Shown here one piece after another: positions 4,200-43,204 of a stretch of 64,000 nt of DNA (position 1 is its first letter; every line of letters starts with the position of its first letter). Position numbers and translations under genes: made by a program. The notes under the pieces were generated by a model that searched no databases, was not told where the DNA came from, and saw nothing but the letters and a program-made list of their open reading frames with translations. This stretch comes from a virus (taxonomy: Duplodnaviria; Caudoviricetes), in IMG/VR virus record IMGVR_UViG_3300027898_000001; one strand, written 5' to 3'.

Positions 4200-4973
4200 A
4201 TGCTAACAAAAACGCCCGTATCTATGATAGGTGTTGGAGCAAATGCTCAACCAAAAGATCAATTGGTGTATAATGGTTCTGCGGTAGAAGCCCAATCTCC
4301 TAGTAGTGGACAGCAGCAAGATATTTATGTTTCTAGTGCTAAGTATAATAGTGATACAGGTGTGTTAGAATTAACGCGCTCAGATTCTACTATACTTCAA
4401 GTTCCAGGATTTATGACTGTAGCTAACATAGGTGTAGGTCCTAGAGGTTCAACTGGGCCTCAAGGTAATCCAGGCCCTTCTGGACGCAATGGTAAAGATG
4501 GTGCTAATGGTATTCCAGGTTGTACTGGACCAAAAGGTGATGCTGGTCCTATTGGTCCTGCTGGGGCTTCTGGTACTTTGGGTTCTATTGGTCCTCAAGG
4601 TGCTACTGGCCCTGCCGGTCCTACGGGACCTCAAGGCCCTGCGGGTACAGATGGTGCTAGTCCTATATACACAACTAGTGCTACGGCATCTAGTGAGAAG
4701 ATGAGCACAGGCCGCGTTATGCAATGGGGTAGATACACGGATGCTACTGTGGGTCAAATAAAAACTGTTTTACTACCTAGTGCGCTTACTGCTTCTGTAG
4801 ATACTAATGCCTTGAGCTTTGTCCTGCAATGGATTGATCCAACTTCTGCGGTCGCAAATAAAGTTGGTGTGACTACAATAAGCAGCGGCTCTGTAACTCT
4901 AACCGCAGATAATGGTTTGTTAGCAGGTGCGGCTGCAACTGGTTGGGATTTCTATTGGTACTTGGTGCAATAA
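4200..4973 (+). CDS. Collagen-like tail fibre protein with a C-terminal gp53-like fibre-tip beta domain
   Basis: 25 GXY triplets and C-terminal MQWGRY...LP motif. Start moved from 4113 to ATG 4200 (RBS AAGGT, homology to the 160..666 N-terminus, no overlap with 4022..4189). Confidence 0.85.
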
Positions 4974-4974
4974 T

Positions 4975-5442
4975 ATGAACATATATTACGTTAGTTACAA
5001 TTCAATTGGTGAGATACTAGGGTTATATAACAGTAATCAACATAAAGTTCACGAGATACCTGCAAACTCTATCCAAATAAGCCAAGCACAACACAGCACT
5101 CTATGTAGACGTCCTGCAGACTTTAGTGTAAATGTAGCATTGGGTCAAATGGTGGATTCAGGTGCTAGTATCGCTTCTGTAGAAGCTGGTGCTATACCGA
5201 ATGCTAAACGCGATATTATCAATAAAGTGGCAGAAGGTTTTTCATTAAACGATACCGTGTACTGTGCGGATGATGTGGCTAGCGCACATGCCACACAATG
5301 TTTAATGTTATCTAACATTGATCCAAAGAAGTCATTTAATTTACGTGTTATAACAGCAAATGGACACGAATTAAAAACTGTAGATGCTGCTACTTTATTA
5401 CAAGTTGTTAAAGGTATTAATAAGCTCCGAGAAGGCATCTAA
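4975..5442 (+). CDS. Tail fibre assembly chaperone-like protein
   Basis: Follows a fibre gene. N-terminal YYVSYNSIGEILGLY...IPANSIQIS resembles Tfa/gp38-type chaperones. Start moved to ATG 4975, right after the upstream stop. Confidence 0.55.
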   Translation: MNIYYVSYNSIGEILGLYNSNQHKVHEIPANSIQISQAQHSTLCRRPADFSVNVALGQMVDSGASIASVEAGAIPNAKRDIINKVAEGFSLNDTVYCADDVASAHATQCLMLSNIDPKKSFNLRVITANGHELKTVDAATLLQVVKGINKLREGI

Positions 5443-14978: not shown

Positions 14979-15636
14979 ATGGAAATCGAATTTTCTTTAT
15001 CAACAAATGTAGTAAGCATTAAAAAGAATAAGCCTAAGATAAAGTTACCTGAAATGTTACAATCTGATGGCTTTGATAGACTTTTTTAAGGATATTCCTG
15101 ATTCAGAGTTGGACTTACTTATTGGTAAATATGCATCACGTAAAAGATACGATAAGACAACGGCTTATATTAAGGTGATAGGTGTTCAACGCATTTTTAA
15201 TGGTAAACTAGCTTTGCGTGGCGTCGAAGATTACAAGCACGATCCACATCAGGTTGGCTCAGCGTTGAAGTTAAAAGAGTTGACGTTTTTAGAAGGTAAG
15301 CCTGTTGAGTACTGGGAACCTAATGACTCGTCAGATAAAACAAATAGAGATTTAACAGATTCTCTATTTATCGCTGTGAAGCAGTTATATCCAGATGCAG
15401 TGAAAGGAGTTAATAATGATGATAAGGAGCAGCATAGATATAACATAATTGTGCGCCGTAATCACTTCGTGAAAAATAAATTTGTTGTTGGTAGTGTTTG
15501 GCAACTGTCAGACGGCAGCATACAATCAAACTTCTTCAATGCGAATTACGATTATTCCACATTACATTCTAAAAACATTGATGATTTAATGGTGAATACA
15601 AAATTTAAAATATTCTTAGCAAGATCACTAAAGTAA
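14979..15636 (+). CDS. Hypothetical protein spanning a +1 frameshift (ORF 14979..15089 joined to ORF 15067..15636)
   Basis: The upstream ORF has RBS AGGA and the MEIEFSLSTN motif and ends CTT TTT TAA G. A +1 shift gives ...DRLF-KDIPDSEL. ATG 15067 has no obvious RBS. Confidence 0.55.
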
Positions 15637-15646
15637 GGTTGATGTT

Positions 15647-15709
15647 ATGGAAATTGAAATATCTTTATCTAGTAATAGTATTGATTACTGGCATTGCATA
15701 CTACTTTAG
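15647..15709 (+). CDS. 20-aa peptide or gene remnant, MEIEISLSSNSIDYWHCILL
   Basis: RBS AAGGT 7 nt upstream. Third copy of the MEIxxSLSxN motif. Lies at the convergent strand junction. Confidence 0.4.
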   Translation: MEIEISLSSNSIDYWHCILL

Positions 15710-15806
15710 CGGATTTGATTACCTCATCTGTCAATACTTCACCTTCGACCATAACTGTTTTTAGGTCTTCTCGTAATTCTGCCTCTAATTCTTCACGATT
15801 TAACAT
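15669..15806 (-). CDS. 45-aa acidic hypothetical protein (absent from the ORF track)
   Basis: MLNREELEAELREDLKTVMVEGEVLTDEVIKSAKVVCNASNQYYY*. Last ORF of the minus-strand block. RBS weak. Confidence 0.4.
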   Translation of the reverse strand: MLNREELEAELREDLKTVMVEGEVLTDEVIKSAKVVCNASNQYYY

Positions 15807-15925
15807 AAATTGTATCAGCTTCACGTTATTGGAACACACCATTTAGGGGCGGTTTTAATGCTACTCCACAGGTGTGGAACCATGTTGTCCTACGGTGTTA
15901 TTTAACATTCTCTACTTGTATTACA

Positions 15926-16723
15926 TCAACTTTCATTATGCACATCCTGATAACTTACAATGAACTTCGCTTTGCGTAACCAGTGATCGGCTAAGCATCG
16001 CATACAAGTGTGAGCAGATCGCGTACAATCACCATCGTGTTCAGCTTCCATCCAAACCATAAAATTAGGAACGCTAACACTACCTATATTATCACCGTCT
16101 TCGTGTGGCTCATCAATCTCATAACTGGCGAGAGCTAATGCAAGTTTTAAGATACGATTATCTTTAGCATCACGATTATCGAGTTGAGACCGTTTAATAG
16201 GATTTTCTTCAGGTTCAAATGGTACTACTATTGGATGACCATTAAAACTTTCAGATTCAGTTATTTTAGGTGTATGTTCTTCGTCAATAATACCTACAGA
16301 AATAAATGTAGTATCACGATCTACGATAACTCTATTTGCTGTTCCTAAATGCGATAGTTTTATTGTAGATACTGTTGACTCAGATACAATAGTAGCACTT
16401 GTGATTGTCGCAATATTTTGTAAAGCACCTTTTCTTAACTCACCGAATCCTGGTGCTTTACACGCAACTACTCTTATGTAACCACGTATCTTATTCACTA
16501 CTAGCGTAGATAACGCCTTGCCTATAATATCCTCAGCAATAATAATCAGTGGACGTTTTGAATTAATAACTTCCGTTAGTATAGGAAGAAAGGGTTCTAT
16601 TTCGTTGAGTTCTCCATCAACTAATAAAACATACGCATTTTCAAACACTACGTTCAATTCAGAATCGTTGTTAATAAAGTAAGGTGATAAGTAACCTTGA
16701 TCGAAACGTGTCTCGTCTATCAT
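15926..16723 (-). CDS. groEL: GroEL apical-domain-only protein fused to a Cys/His-rich C-terminal domain
   Basis: Residues ~1-145 align with E. coli GroEL ~191-337 (FDQGYLSPYF, LIIIAED, ALSTLVVN, KAPGFG, DTT). No equatorial ATPase domain. C-terminal HDGDC-x5-C-x2-C. Confidence 0.9.
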   Translation of the reverse strand: MIDETRFDQGYLSPYFINNDSELNVVFENAYVLLVDGELNEIEPFLPILTEVINSKRPLIIIAEDIIGKALSTLVVNKIRGYIRVVACKAPGFGELRKGALQNIATITSATIVSESTVSTIKLSHLGTANRVIVDRDTTFISVGIIDEEHTPKITESESFNGHPIVVPFEPEENPIKRSQLDNRDAKDNRILKLALALASYEIDEPHEDGDNIGSVSVPNFMVWMEAEHDGDCTRSAHTCMRCLADHWLRKAKFIVSYQDVHNES

Positions 16724-17535
16724 TGCCGTATCTCGTATTTATCAAGAATATGTTTAACAAGAGGTTTATTACTTGGTGTGCGAGTCAGACAATCAAAATC
16801 TATATCAACATCTGTTTTGCATTTCACCAACTTGTAGGACAGTCGCAAGTTATCTAATTGCTCTGATAACCTTTTACCTGTCGCACCCTTAATGTTGTCT
16901 ATATTAGCAACAATATTTTTCAGAGTACCATACTCTTTAATGAGCTTTAGTGCAATTACATCACCAACGCCGTACACACCAGGAATATGGTCAGTCTTAT
17001 CACCTTTCATTGCAAGAAAGTATGTTACTTGTTTTGGTGTTAAGCCTTTCTCTTCCAATAATGATTTCAACGTAGTACGTTTCTGTGCCTTAGTATCAAG
17101 CAAATCTACATACTTGGAAATAAACTGTGCGCAGTCTTTATCGCCAGTTAGAATTGTAAGCTGCATTTCATTTTCAGTGTAGTGCTTTGCAATAGTACCA
17201 AGAACATCGTCGGCTTCAACACCTTTTATATTCAACACTGGAAGTCCAAACGCGCGACATAGTTTGCGGATAATAGGTTTCTGTACCTTTAGGTCGTCTG
17301 GACACGGTTTGCGATGCAGTTTGTAATCGGCATATAAATCGTAACGGAAGTTTCTACTCTCATGGTCAAATGTCACGATTATGTTTTGCTGTTCACGTAA
17401 CAAAGGTTTTATCATGTGATAGAAGAATGTGATAACGCCAGTTGGTTCACCCTTTCTAGTAGTCAATTGGGCTTTGAAACTAGCGTAGTATGCACGGTAC
17501 AAATAGTAGTTACCATCTAGTACTAGAGTGCGCAT
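16720..17535 (-). CDS. 5'-3' exonuclease / flap endonuclease (PolA N-terminal-like)
   Basis: LDGNYYLYRAYY, FD...FR..LY..YK..R, EADDVLGT, TGDKD..Q and GDKTDHIPGVYGVG motifs. No polymerase domain. Confidence 0.92.
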   Translation of the reverse strand: MRTLVLDGNYYLYRAYYASFKAQLTTRKGEPTGVITFFYHMIKPLLREQQNIIVTFDHESRNFRYDLYADYKLHRKPCPDDLKVQKPIIRKLCRAFGLPVLNIKGVEADDVLGTIAKHYTENEMQLTILTGDKDCAQFISKYVDLLDTKAQKRTTLKSLLEEKGLTPKQVTYFLAMKGDKTDHIPGVYGVGDVIALKLIKEYGTLKNIVANIDNIKGATGKRLSEQLDNLRLSYKLVKCKTDVDIDFDCLTRTPSNKPLVKHILDKYEIRQ

Positions 17536-18035
17536 TATTTGACAACCGTTAATGTTGGTTTAGCTGGGAAGTGAGAGTTCTCGAAAAACTCTTTAGATTC
17601 TTTCTTGTTATATTTGGACGCAAGTGGATTAGGAATAATGTATATGGGTTCGCTTGGAGATCCAAAGTTATACTCAAAGTAGAATGCTTTATCCTCAGAG
17701 GGTGCAGAATCACCGGTGCTAACGCCAATAATATTCTCTAATGGCAATACACAGCGGAAAGGAACACCGTTAAATGTTGTGTTGAATGCAATAACAGCGT
17801 TCTCATAATCTATATTGTAGTTCGTCATGGAACGTGTCGCAGCACGTAGCGTTACTTTTTTACGATCTTGTAGGGATTTTGGTAATGATAGTTCGACTGG
17901 AGATAATAGGAGTATTTGGGCGCGCGAGAAACTAGGCTTTCTTGACAATTGTATATGTGGGTCGTAACCCATCATAGACAACATGTTGATGTGGTTTTGT
18001 ACTACTTCGATATTGGTGCAGAACTGTTTTAACAT
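17535..18035 (-). CDS. sspB: SspB-like ClpXP adaptor
   Basis: FNTTFNGVP...LPLENI resembles SspB FNARFGGxP...VPLxAV. C-terminus KPTLTVVK resembles the ClpX-binding tail RPALRVVK. Confidence 0.75.
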   Translation of the reverse strand: MLKQFCTNIEVVQNHINMLSMMGYDPHIQLSRKPSFSRAQILLLSPVELSLPKSLQDRKKVTLRAATRSMTNYNIDYENAVIAFNTTFNGVPFRCVLPLENIIGVSTGDSAPSEDKAFYFEYNFGSPSEPIYIIPNPLASKYNKKESKEFFENSHFPAKPTLTVVK

Positions 18036-20259: not shown

Positions 20260-20613
20260 CTACACTGTTACAGCAACATCGTTATAACGAACATACTCAG
20301 CCAAAGTGAGAGGTAACTTGGCTTCAATTGCGGCATGATCGAATAAGGTTGCATCGTAACCTGAAGCGGACATAGCGTTCCAATCAATCGAGCTATCATC
20401 GAATGGTAAGAATGTAACAGTATTAGAACCAGTTGTGACTGTTGTACTATTGATAGTTGTTGAATTAATAAACATGCGTTCAAACTCGCGCGCTAACTCT
20501 AGTGAGGCATCCTCAGAAACACAAACTATTGCTGTTTTTGAATGTTTACTTGAGGACTTGAACGCGCTTGTCAACATATTCAATGTACGGCTGCTTCCTT
20601 TTAGTGCTGTCAT
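20260..20613 (-). CDS. Hypothetical protein
   Basis: Coupled ORF. Confidence 0.6.
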   Translation of the reverse strand: MTALKGSSRTLNMLTSAFKSSSKHSKTAIVCVSEDASLELAREFERMFINSTTINSTTVTTGSNTVTFLPFDDSSIDWNAMSASGYDATLFDHAAIEAKLPLTLAEYVRYNDVAVTV

Positions 20614-21020
20614 TTTACTACTCTCAATTTAGGTTTTTGTTTACTGAAAACTCGCATCATTTTAAAGTCCTTAGGATCGAATTCAAATATAATCTCATCA
20701 CCGCTTGATTTAAGCATAGGGATATATTCAACAGGTACTTTAAACTCCGCATTGTCTTCTACGCGGTTAAATGACAAAACACCGCTTTCATAACACATAC
20801 GCATGTTACGTACTGTAACATCCCACAACGGTACTGTTATGTACTCCTCATCAGCATAATCATTTGGTAATACTAATTCTGCGTTTGGAAGTGGGGATGT
20901 TGCATTAGTCCTATCTAAATATGGTTGTTTAGATACCACTAAGACTGGCACCAGATGCAAATCTATAATGCAGTCATAATAGCTACATAGTGTGTATGCA
21001 GTAATACAGGAAAAGATCAT
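20610..21020 (-). CDS. sspB: Second SspB-like adaptor
   Basis: VLPNDYADEEYITVPL...VRNMRM...SFN resembles SspB VPMEYARDGQIVLNI...VGNLEL...RFN. C-terminus KPKLRVVK. Confidence 0.65.
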   Translation of the reverse strand: MIFSCITAYTLCSYYDCIIDLHLVPVLVVSKQPYLDRTNATSPLPNAELVLPNDYADEEYITVPLWDVTVRNMRMCYESGVLSFNRVEDNAEFKVPVEYIPMLKSSGDEIIFEFDPKDFKMMRVFSKQKPKLRVVK

Positions 21021-29785: not shown

Positions 29786-30052
29786 TTATTTACAGTTTTC
29801 GCAATAAACTACTTTTGCAATTATAGGTCGATTTACATGCAAATAAAGCTCAGAAGCAGGTAATCTATTATTTGGAAGCGTAAAAGGTGGTCTACCTAAA
29901 TCACCATACCAAGTACATATAGCAGCATAAGTAGGATTACGATAAAACCATTTATTGCACTGAATGCAGCGCCACTTTTTGTGTACACGAAAGCTGGCTA
30001 ATAAATTTTCTTCCATCGAATTTATTCCTAGAAAATAACTTGTGTAATTCAC
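29786..30052 (-). CDS. Possible small Zn-finger protein (start uncertain)
   Basis: CIQC and CENC pairs. Overlaps the 3' end of the AAA gene. Confidence 0.35.
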   Translation of the reverse strand: MNYTSYFLGINSMEENLLASFRVHKKWRCIQCNKWFYRNPTYAAICTWYGDLGRPPFTLPNNRLPASELYLHVNRPIIAKVVYCENCK

Positions 30053-31304
30053 AGCCCATTATAGGACAGAATTCTAAATTCGCGTATACGGAATAGTCTA
30101 TCTCTGGGTACATAACTGCTATATAGCGTTTTATTAGTGGTGGGGTCAGTGCAGTTATTTCTAACTTCAAATCAACTCGACCACTTCTTAATACAGCAGC
30201 ATCAACTTGTTCTAAGTGATTGGTAGTCATAAACGTAATAACACCATCTATAGGGATAATACCATCGAACGCATTTAGAACACCACTTATAGTTAGCGGT
30301 TGAAACATAGGAATTTCAGAACCTTCTTCCTTAGGTTTCTCTACGATGTACATACCATCATCATTTGTATCTTGTTTCTCTTGTCGGGATTGTACAGCAG
30401 AAGTACCTTCAAAATCCTCTATCAGTAGAAAAGAATTTTTAGGTATAGATGATATGGCTTTTGCCAGAGAAATATCACTCAATGTAGATAGATTGAGAGA
30501 GTAAATGTTTCTATTGTAATGACTCGCAAGCGCGCGAATCAATGATGTTTTACCACCTCCAGGTGAACCATAAAGTACGATTGTGGATTTAGGTGCGAAG
30601 CCTCGATCAATGTACCACTTTCTGTTGTTGGTTACAAACTCAATCTCACTCTTAATACTGTTTAAAACACTATCATCCATTATAACCGTTTCTAAACTTC
30701 GTGGAAATACTGATGATGTTAATTCCCAACTACTATTAATGTAATTAAAAACATGATTAGCTTTAGTATCGAATTTCAATGCAAACTTATCACCCAGCTT
30801 AATGATAGTTTTATTTGTAAGTCCAAATGTGTAGATTATTATTTCTTCCTTTAGTTTCTCAGCACCAGAAGATTCCAACCGTTTTAATACGAACCAATAC
30901 AGCTTACCTTTGTCGAAGAATATGTGTGTACCTAAACCTGGTCCAGTTACTGTATCTAAAAATGATTCCTCTAGACCTGCTCTGCCTTCACGTACTAGAT
31001 TCAAGTCGTTGCGCTTGCTAAAATACCCTGAGTGCATTGCAACTGATTTAGAAAACTTAAACCATTTTGTGCTGCTGAACCACATTAGAAAATCTCTGTA
31101 CTGCATTTCTTGCCAATAATGGCCAGTTGCATTTGAAATAGATACAGATACAACTAGATTACGCACAATGAGCCCATAGAATATTTTAGGCAACCATCGA
31201 AGTAAAAGTGTACTTACGGTTATTGCCCAGACTGAAATAATACCACCAATTACTGGATTTGTTTTTAACAGTTCTGAGTACCAATGTCCAATCTCAATCA
31301 ACAT
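29952..31304 (-). CDS. BCS1-like membrane-anchored AAA+ ATPase
   Basis: N-terminal TM, GPGLGTH (BCS1_N-like), WYIDRG, Walker A GSPGGGKT, Walker B LLIED, SGVLNAFDG, FMTTNH and LRSGRVD. Confidence 0.88.
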   Translation of the reverse strand: MLIEIGHWYSELLKTNPVIGGIISVWAITVSTLLLRWLPKIFYGLIVRNLVVSVSISNATGHYWQEMQYRDFLMWFSSTKWFKFSKSVAMHSGYFSKRNDLNLVREGRAGLEESFLDTVTGPGLGTHIFFDKGKLYWFVLKRLESSGAEKLKEEIIIYTFGLTNKTIIKLGDKFALKFDTKANHVFNYINSSWELTSSVFPRSLETVIMDDSVLNSIKSEIEFVTNNRKWYIDRGFAPKSTIVLYGSPGGGKTSLIRALASHYNRNIYSLNLSTLSDISLAKAISSIPKNSFLLIEDFEGTSAVQSRQEKQDTNDDGMYIVEKPKEEGSEIPMFQPLTISGVLNAFDGIIPIDGVITFMTTNHLEQVDAAVLRSGRVDLKLEITALTPPLIKRYIAVMYPEIDYSVYANLEFCPIMGCELHKLFSRNKFDGRKFISQLSCTQKVALHSVQ

Positions 31305-42910: not shown

Positions 42911-43204
42911 TCAATTTGAATCCTCCGTACCAATATTCATCTTCCAGTATTCTAAATTTTGTTGTGCCTCTTCCAAAGTATCGTAGTAGTCAACGACCTT
43001 TTCGATATTGTGGTTAATGATTGTAGTGCCACGCAATCCACTTTTGTCGCTATCATACTCGGTAACATCATACGTTTGTACAATATTGAAACGCAATTTG
43101 TGGAAAGCGGTTGGAATGAGTTTGTATAGCAGTTTGTAACCAATTGTCCGCGAGACTCGAATTGAGTATTCTTTGATTCTGTTATTTACATGCTCAACTG
43201 CCAC
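42911..43204 (-). CDS. Hypothetical protein
   Basis: RBS GAGG/GGAG region upstream. Confidence 0.55.
   Translation of the reverse strand: MAVEHVNNRIKEYSIRVSRTIGYKLLYKLIPTAFHKLRFNIVQTYDVTEYDSDKSGLRGTTIINHNIEKVVDYYDTLEEAQQNLEYWKMNIGTEDSN

Follow-up and report, generated by a model that had tools for sequence, protein, structure and literature searches.

A gene in an uncultured freshwater jumbo phage encodes what appears to be a natural version of a GroEL minichaperone, the apical domain of the chaperonin on its own, tethered to a small Cys/His domain of a phage-associated family. The gene lies in a stretch of 64,000 nucleotides from IMG/VR record IMGVR_UViG_3300027898_000001 (Duplodnaviria; Caudoviricetes), which was analysed as a whole and is referred to here as the window. 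The open reading frame (ORF; 15926..16723, minus strand) comprises 265 codons and a stop. An apical domain alone, fused to a Cys/His domain, was observed here earlier in a reading of the letters alone (the sequence-only reading); our analysis confirms this and resolves the product into three parts, an apical domain, a linker and a helical domain with one His and three Cys residues (H-C3). Research on engineered minichaperones, which are isolated apical domains of GroEL, goes back decades. A domain of this kind that nature has cut at minichaperone limits and tethered to a putative docking domain raises the question of what a single, ATP-free apical domain does in a cell, and the phage protein is a ready construct with which to ask it. 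We give about an even chance to the reading that the protein is an ATP-independent groove-binding module which its tail docks or multimerises.

The N-terminal part corresponds to a GroEL apical domain

Four approaches (BLASTP, phmmer against PDB sequences, NCBIfam and Foldseek) delimit a GroEL apical domain at residues 1–148 (16280..16723, minus strand). BLASTP aligns these residues with positions 189–339 of E. coli K-12 GroEL (NC_000913.3) at 46% identity (E 4e-43), the GroEL numbering being offset by +188 up to residue 117 and by +191 after that, with one 3-residue deletion at GroEL 306–308. The phmmer matches to PDB sequences (E 4e-40 to 1e-36) are confined to GroEL 190–339 and include the apical constructs 3osx, 1fy9, 1la1, 1jon, 1kid, 1dk7 and 1srv as well as full-length GroELs, while the NCBIfam GroEL models match at positions 189–338 only (E 1e-44 to 8.5e-47) and score far under their full-length cut-offs. 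The apical-only extent of about 191–337 that had been read from the sequence is therefore borne out by the BLASTP and NCBIfam limits. As a complete chaperonin the protein does not qualify, with 152.7 bits for TIGR02348 against a cut-off of 582.1 and 26.8 for PF00118 (Cpn60_TCP1) against 34.3; PHROG 5725 (chaperonin groEL) is matched at E 1.7e-26.

The equatorial domain, which carries most of the ring contacts in GroEL and holds the ring together, is absent from the ORF. With neither an equatorial nor an intermediate domain, the protein cannot bind ATP. Judged by these missing ATPase and ring-forming parts, it does not belong, as far as function goes, to the GroEL chaperonin family. The surface that contacts ligands is a different matter. 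Residues Y199, S201, Y203, F204, L234, L237, L259, V263 and V264 of GroEL are those defined by mutagenesis as binding polypeptides and GroES, and in the BLASTP alignment 9/9 are identical in the phage protein (Y11, S13, Y15, F16, L46, L49, L71, V75 and V76), so that the earlier claim of a retained substrate- and GroES-binding surface holds and S201 can be added to it.

As a whole the domain is well diverged. Identity to 118 GroEL fragments from many phyla is uniformly 44–51%, a range too even for the donor lineage of the apical domain to be placed, and identity to phage-encoded GroELs is 28–42% (tblastn). Of the 65 columns conserved to 90% or more in a MAFFT alignment of these 118 GroEL apical segments, the domain retains 48, and conserved columns are kept far oftener than variable ones.

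Two folded domains joined by a disordered tether are predicted

To model the full-length protein, AlphaFold2 (AF2) was given a cleaned alignment (A4) in which 30 apical segments from GroELs were combined with 27 proteins of the tail family. Over the whole ORF the mean predicted local distance difference test score (pLDDT) is 84.5. It exceeds 90 for residues 1–145 and drops below 50 for residues 146–181, a disordered linker of about 36 residues, and the predicted template modelling score (pTM) of 0.56 indicates no fixed packing between the two folded domains. The apical and tail domains are thus predicted to behave as independent beads on a disordered tether. With Foldseek, the model superposes on 1srv (T. 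thermophilus 192–336) with a template modelling (TM) score by target of 0.93 at 1.3 Å, and on 1jon (GroEL 191–345) with 0.96 at 1.5 Å. No equivalent of GroEL helices K and L follows the strand at residues 139–143, which makes the domain the counterpart of a short minichaperone of the 193–335 type and not of a full 191–376 apical domain. One MAFFT alignment (A2) did pair the GroEL helix K/L segment (SDYDREKL) with SYEIDEPH of the tail; we rejected this pairing as forced, since the phmmer and BLASTP matches end at residues 148–150.

In the feature boundaries adopted here the linker spans residues 149–185 (16169..16279, minus strand). It is acidic, Pro-rich, predicted to be disordered from its low pLDDT, and covered by no homologue. 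Its sole hydrophobic patch, G162-H-P-I-V-V-P-F169 (16217–16240, minus strand), is reminiscent of G-G-I-V-L, the part of the GroES mobile loop that binds the GroEL groove. The patch could be a pseudo-ligand acting in cis or could be chance, a 3-residue hydrophobic run in 40 residues being unremarkable.

The tail belongs to a small phage-associated family

The sequence-only reading had described an unrelated Cys/His tail of about 120 residues with the motif HDGDC-x5-C-x2-C. A Cys/His tail is indeed present, but it is not one domain of that length: in the AF2 model it divides into the disordered linker and a confidently predicted helical domain of about 78 residues. Nor is it an orphan, belonging instead to a small phage-associated family whose members normally stand alone. 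The motif spacing was also wrong; it reads H229-D-G-D-C233-x6-C240-x2-C243. The four-helix domain occupies residues 186–263 (15935..16168, minus strand), as indicated by its phmmer relatives, their alignment (A1) and AF2.

Residues 150–265 match nothing in Pfam, PHROGs or NCBIfam. A phmmer search with residues 146–265 against 1.84 billion representative proteins returned 63 relatives (P0121–P0183; E 7.6e-11 to 8e-4), all aligned at residues ~190–257 and 35–48% identical to the tail over that segment. Most are proteins of 70–140 amino acids with little beyond the domain itself. Aligned with one another (A1), 47 family sequences yield the consensus LAxLLAxYExDEPH ... WLxxEHxGDCxxxPxxCxRCxAExxxHKAxWI, in which the His and the C-x2-C pair are invariant and Y, D, P and the G-D-C triplet, including C233, are at least 90% conserved. 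The tail of the phage protein retains every invariant and near-invariant residue of the family, and with a match over the whole domain of ~70 residues it is a member. Family conservation, together with the codons as read directly, delimits a putative metal site, H229-x3-C233-x6-C240-x2-C243 (15995..16039, minus strand), and it is plausible from this pattern that the four residues form a four-ligand zinc site.

Predicted on its own with A1, the tail folds into four helices with a pLDDT of 95.1 and a pTM of 0.83. Comparisons of this fold gave a best Foldseek E of 4.5 against the PDB, a best Z of 4.8 against 48,161 chains (VIA-align wide), a best E of 2.4 against AFDB clusters and a best E of 0.036 against BFVD, to an uncharacterised Orpheovirus protein. 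Matches in the ESM Atlas reached TM scores of at most 0.59 and came from unrelated families, a feature search yielded low scores only, and a PDB profile search gave E 0.7 or worse. The predicted fold thus has no convincing structural relative in the collections searched, which does not prove that it is a new fold. A homodimer prediction for the tail scored 0.40 against a mark of 0.42, which speaks neither for nor against a dimer.

All tail-family loci with readable context look like phage DNA, with small, tightly packed genes. In two unrelated phage contigs, a 94-kb IMG/VR contig (L007; member at 4962–5237) and a 28.6-kb contig (L010; 7001–7330), the member sits amid small genes inside a split DNA polymerase III alpha, the split lying between a PHP/polymerase half and a finger/helix-hairpin-helix half; the neighbours there include a DnaQ-type exonuclease, a SLOG-domain protein, a macro domain and a single-stranded DNA-binding protein. 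Elsewhere, one member shares its contig with a phage integrase (L011), and another lies on a 41-kb contig that has SMC/AAA and metallophosphatase genes (L008). The tail in the window likewise follows a DNA-metabolism gene. One relative (P0139; 154 amino acids, from a cluster of 3 members) carries an N-terminal Lar restriction-alleviation zinc ribbon in front of the tail domain (PF14354, 32.4 bits, above the cut-off), which hints at a tie between the family and phage early or host-takeover proteins, and four others (P0122, P0127, P0130 and P0157) have Cys-rich, ribbon-like extensions. A chaperonin domain is found in none of the tail-family relatives. Judged by these sequences and their contexts, the tail is a small domain that recurs in early or replication regions of phages and tolerates varied N-terminal partners, and the family is a candidate host-takeover domain, given its places in such regions and its occasional Lar-like fusion. 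It is in any case a small, well-folding phage-associated family with a conserved H-C3 site, which lacks both an annotation and, so far as found, a structural relative.

The gene is intact and lies in a lineage-specific region

The ATG of the ORF (16723–16721) overlaps the TGA of an upstream exonuclease gene (16722–16720), the plus-strand letters tcat reading ATGA on the minus strand. The letters at 16723–16720 thus agree with the start that had been proposed at this overlap (ATGA, 16720..16723, minus strand), and the same junction is present in a contig from a second study. The two genes share their direction of transcription, and through the overlap translation of the ORF is coupled to that of the exonuclease.

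Other assemblies also contain the sequence. A 1690-nt Logan contig from the probable source run matches 15600–16608 without a difference and spans both the apical-linker and the linker-tail junctions. A second freshwater metagenome, from a different study, contains identical pieces at 15808–16084 and 16652–17243, the latter with the ATGA junction; it leaves 16136–16604 uncovered, so the continuity of apical domain, linker and tail is carried by the one Logan contig. The two freshwater studies, dated 2017 and 2025, are letter-identical across the matched parts of 15600–17600, and the phage or a near-identical strain therefore recurs in samples filed eight years apart. Both sequence-bearing runs being letter-identical, there are no population variants from which a ratio of nonsynonymous to synonymous polymorphism (pN/pS) could be derived; no RNA data set is listed among the runs with the sequence. 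By our own arithmetic, a random frame of 265 codons at the base composition of the window would stay open with a probability of ~2e-8. The gene is AT-rich like the phage (GC 36.6%, against 38.7% for the window), and its GC content at third codon positions (GC3), 0.23, does not exceed the values of neighbouring phage genes (0.31–0.39).

The sequence-only reading had named one finding that would turn this gene into a decaying fragment, namely an intact groEL at this place in related phages together with neutral evolution of the present copy. Relatedness shows in virion proteins: the tail sheath is 50.7% identical to that of Pseudomonas phage PaBG and 47% to that of Phage NCTB, and a neighbouring 565-aa virion protein is 59% identical in a complete IMG/VR genome of 241.7 kb. 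None of these three relatives contains any GroEL-like sequence, in a search whose GroEL-model control matched 14/14 control genomes. Within the window, tblastn in all frames with the N- and C-terminal parts of GroEL found only 16265–16723, all other matches having E >0.8; a weak, recurrent match of the GroEL C-terminus at 42985–43176 (E 0.8–8) was taken as chance, with no Pfam support. Three relatives that lack groEL, together with the lack of equatorial or intermediate remnants in the window, indicate that this is not a full-length ancestral groEL in decay at this locus.

The region differs between these phages. Synteny with the 241.7-kb relative stops near 12.3 kb of the window; that genome lacks the exonuclease, and in the 10 kb beyond the match it has no counterpart of the lysis genes, the exonuclease, the apical-domain gene or the next minus-strand ORFs. 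Nor does PaBG, in its first 49 kb, contain a match to the ORFs of 13.5–24.3 kb. With synteny ending at ~12.3 kb and counterparts of the exonuclease and the ORF missing in relatives, the gene lies in a lineage-specific accessory region. Synteny searches based on the exonuclease in IMG/VR and JGI metagenomes returned relatives of <30% identity only, none with the fusion, and no contig record encoding the 265-aa protein was found.

What the protein may do

In the reading to which we give an even chance, the groove between the equivalents of helices H and I (L46, L49, L71, V75 and V76, with Y11, Y15 and F16) would bind extended hydrophobic segments, either of non-native polypeptides or of GroES-type mobile loops, with no need for ATP, and the tail domain would place this binder beside a partner or supply valency. 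Metal binding, the activity of the groove, a partner and an effect on infection are all things that we infer here. The GroEL-derived part has both of its ends at domain boundaries, and its 148 codons, ~50% diverged from all GroELs compared, contain zero stops and zero frameshifts. Such ends, an intact frame and the retention of conserved columns and of tail residues fit a maintained binding module, and they argue, indirectly, for purifying selection on both domains. The interpretation offered with the sequence-only reading (a holdase, a GroES sponge or a decoy, with a tail that may target or oligomerise it) is in this way partly supported: the anatomy holds, and the activities are candidates. 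Engineered apical fragments of such limits are stable monomers, keep the substrate-binding surface of GroEL and, without ATP, help rhodanese and cyclophilin A to refold (PMC9138447), and as GroEL apical domain (GrAD) carriers, joined to a partner via a long flexible linker, they keep this partner soluble (PMC9138447). The predicted bead-tether-bead layout of the phage protein resembles these engineered GrAD fusions.

A number of points weigh against a maintained binding module. The fusion is known from one phage only, perhaps as a chimera of recent origin, and chimeric ORFs confined to one lineage often do not last. No orthologue of the fusion was found among the proteins of 145–464 amino acids in a set of 5.8 billion clusters, a size range outside which full-length GroELs fall; of the 4772 matches in that search, those inspected are partial, frameshifted or chimeric bacterial GroELs. 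There is likewise no second case among the 1.84 billion representatives searched with the tail, in IMG/VR (pattern scans, whole protein and tail) or in INPHARED (megablast and tblastn). For such a singleton, the ratio of nonsynonymous to synonymous substitution rates (dN/dS), and with it selection, is not measurable. The 9/9 retention in the groove is itself only weakly beyond expectation, with a probability of ~0.07 by our own arithmetic given that 74% of conserved columns are kept, and 17 near-invariant GroEL positions are altered in addition to the 3-residue loop deletion. The changes include M193T, K226E, E238T, E257K, V276C, R284L, A287G, M288A and D291N; the conserved Gly of the 306–308 loop is lost and the R197 equivalent is Gln. 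Finally, monomeric apical domains bind weakly, and the avidity of the ring matters. Two of the altered positions deserve a comment. R197 makes an inter-subunit salt bridge to E386 in GroEL, and E257 is part of inter-subunit salt bridges as well, which would fit a release from ring constraints; this is a lead and not a result.

The same uniqueness can be read as a mark of accident, in which illegitimate recombination placed a piece of a bacterial groEL ahead of a small tail-family gene that was already there, and the resulting chimeric ORF, whose apical part is functionless, is neutral or on its way out. A location in a variable accessory region, beyond the point (~12.3 kb) at which the synteny shared with the nearest relative ends, would suit such an event, and because the tail family is normally stand-alone the tail could be the sole functional part. 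We nevertheless consider an accident unlikely: the captured piece is bounded by domain limits on both sides, neutral change would hardly let 148 codons diverge by ~50% and leave them free of stops and frameshifts, conserved columns are retained far oftener than variable ones, the base composition is AT-rich like that of the phage, and the sequence is identical in freshwater metagenomes of the 2017 and 2025 studies. About as unlikely, in our judgement, is a reading in which the protein is a weapon or tool rather than a chaperone, the copied GroEL surface capturing GroES-type loops or hydrophobic segments while the H-C3 tail ties the captive to a host or phage machine and, with the SspB-like neighbours, rewires host protein quality control. 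If this were true, the tail family would represent a new fold that binds zinc and acts on a defined target in the host.

Slightly less probable still is a sponge or reprogrammer of the co-chaperonin, the apical domain binding mobile loops, either those of GroES from the host or those of a GroES/gp31-like protein from the phage, and so titrating or redirecting the host GroEL/ES. The groove residues are common to GroES and substrate binding and all are kept, and some neighbours look aimed at host proteostasis, two SspB-like ORFs ending in LTVVK and LRVVK; yet no GroES-like gene was identified in the annotated parts, a search that did not extend to the rest of the genome, a lone apical domain binds one mobile loop weakly, and a Thr replaces E238, which 95% or more of GroELs keep. 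We find it improbable to a greater degree that the apical domain acts as a helper in cis, aiding its own tail or the linker, where PIVVPF would be a pseudo-ligand, or as bait that decoys a host factor recognising GroEL. We know of no defence system that senses GroEL, which counts against a decoy. The I-V-V patch of the linker does resemble the G-G-I-V-L loop of GroES, but three hydrophobic residues in a row are nothing out of the ordinary within a stretch of 40. Engineered GrAD fusions keep their partners soluble via a long flexible linker (PMC9138447), whereas the tail family exists and folds without an apical domain, and AF2 docks neither linker nor tail on the groove (linker pLDDT <50, pTM 0.56).

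Comparison with known systems

The closest parallels to the phage protein are the engineered minichaperones (GroEL 191–345 and 193–335, T. thermophilus GrAD 190–333; 1jon, 1kid and 1srv), with which it shares limits, predicted fold and groove residues. Like them it is without the ATPase domain, and the fragment limits (GroEL 189–339, no helices K/L) are of the same kind. It differs in being natural, 45–48% identical, changed at the 17 near-invariant positions and by the 3-residue deletion, and extended by the C-terminal H-C3 domain; it is also known from sequence only. A natural stand-alone apical domain in a phage was not found in the literature searched. Full-length group I chaperonins, among them GroEL, the GroELs of Vibrio, Flavobacterium, Cellulophaga and Bacteroides phages, EL gp146 and the AR9 chaperonin, have a homologous apical domain, but the phage protein lacks their equatorial and intermediate domains and hence has no ATP site and no ring-forming part. 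In INPHARED, 117 records match the apical part, and those listed are annotated as chaperonin genes; a match in Bacteroides phage DAC19 that is annotated only as hypothetical is a 540-aa gene. The phage chaperonins found here appear to be full length. With the unnamed YExDEPH/H-C3 family the protein shares its tail, the other members being stand-alone or joined to Zn-ribbon modules and none to a chaperonin domain. A more distant precedent is offered by the PIKfyve/Fab1 lipid kinases, which contain a chaperonin-like CCT apical/intermediate domain and in which a chaperonin substrate-binding region has likewise been reused as a module in a non-chaperonin protein; these differ in being eukaryotic, of group II origin and inside a large enzyme, with a sequence relation at superfamily level only.

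Neighbouring genes

The apical-domain ORF closes a long minus-strand block and faces convergent plus-strand genes, among them those for an endolysin and a spanin-like lipoprotein. Neither a terminator-like site nor an unusual fold (z −1.2) shows in the intergenic stretch 15637–15925, and there are no tRNAs in the 64-kb window. Directly upstream, the 271-aa 5′-3′ exonuclease (16720..17535, minus strand) is of the FEN/Pol I N-terminal type (PF02739, E 5e-47; PF01367, E 2e-24).

The gene upstream of the exonuclease (17535..18035, minus strand; 166 amino acids) is weakly SspB-like and belongs to the chain of overlapping genes that also holds the exonuclease and the apical-domain gene. It ends in ...KPTLTVVK, and a second small minus-strand ORF at 20610–21020 ends in ...KPKLRVVK. 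Both ends resemble LRVVK, the ClpX-docking tail of E. coli SspB. With the Pfam SspB model (PF04386), the first gives E 0.031, below the cut-off, and the second no match. Farther away, a minus-strand ORF at 29952–31304 encodes a 450-aa AAA ATPase (PF00004, E 1.7e-11) with a weak BCS1 N-terminal match (PF08740, E 6.8e-5, below the cut-off); its match to PHROG 7485, a group of unknown function, reaches E 6e-111.

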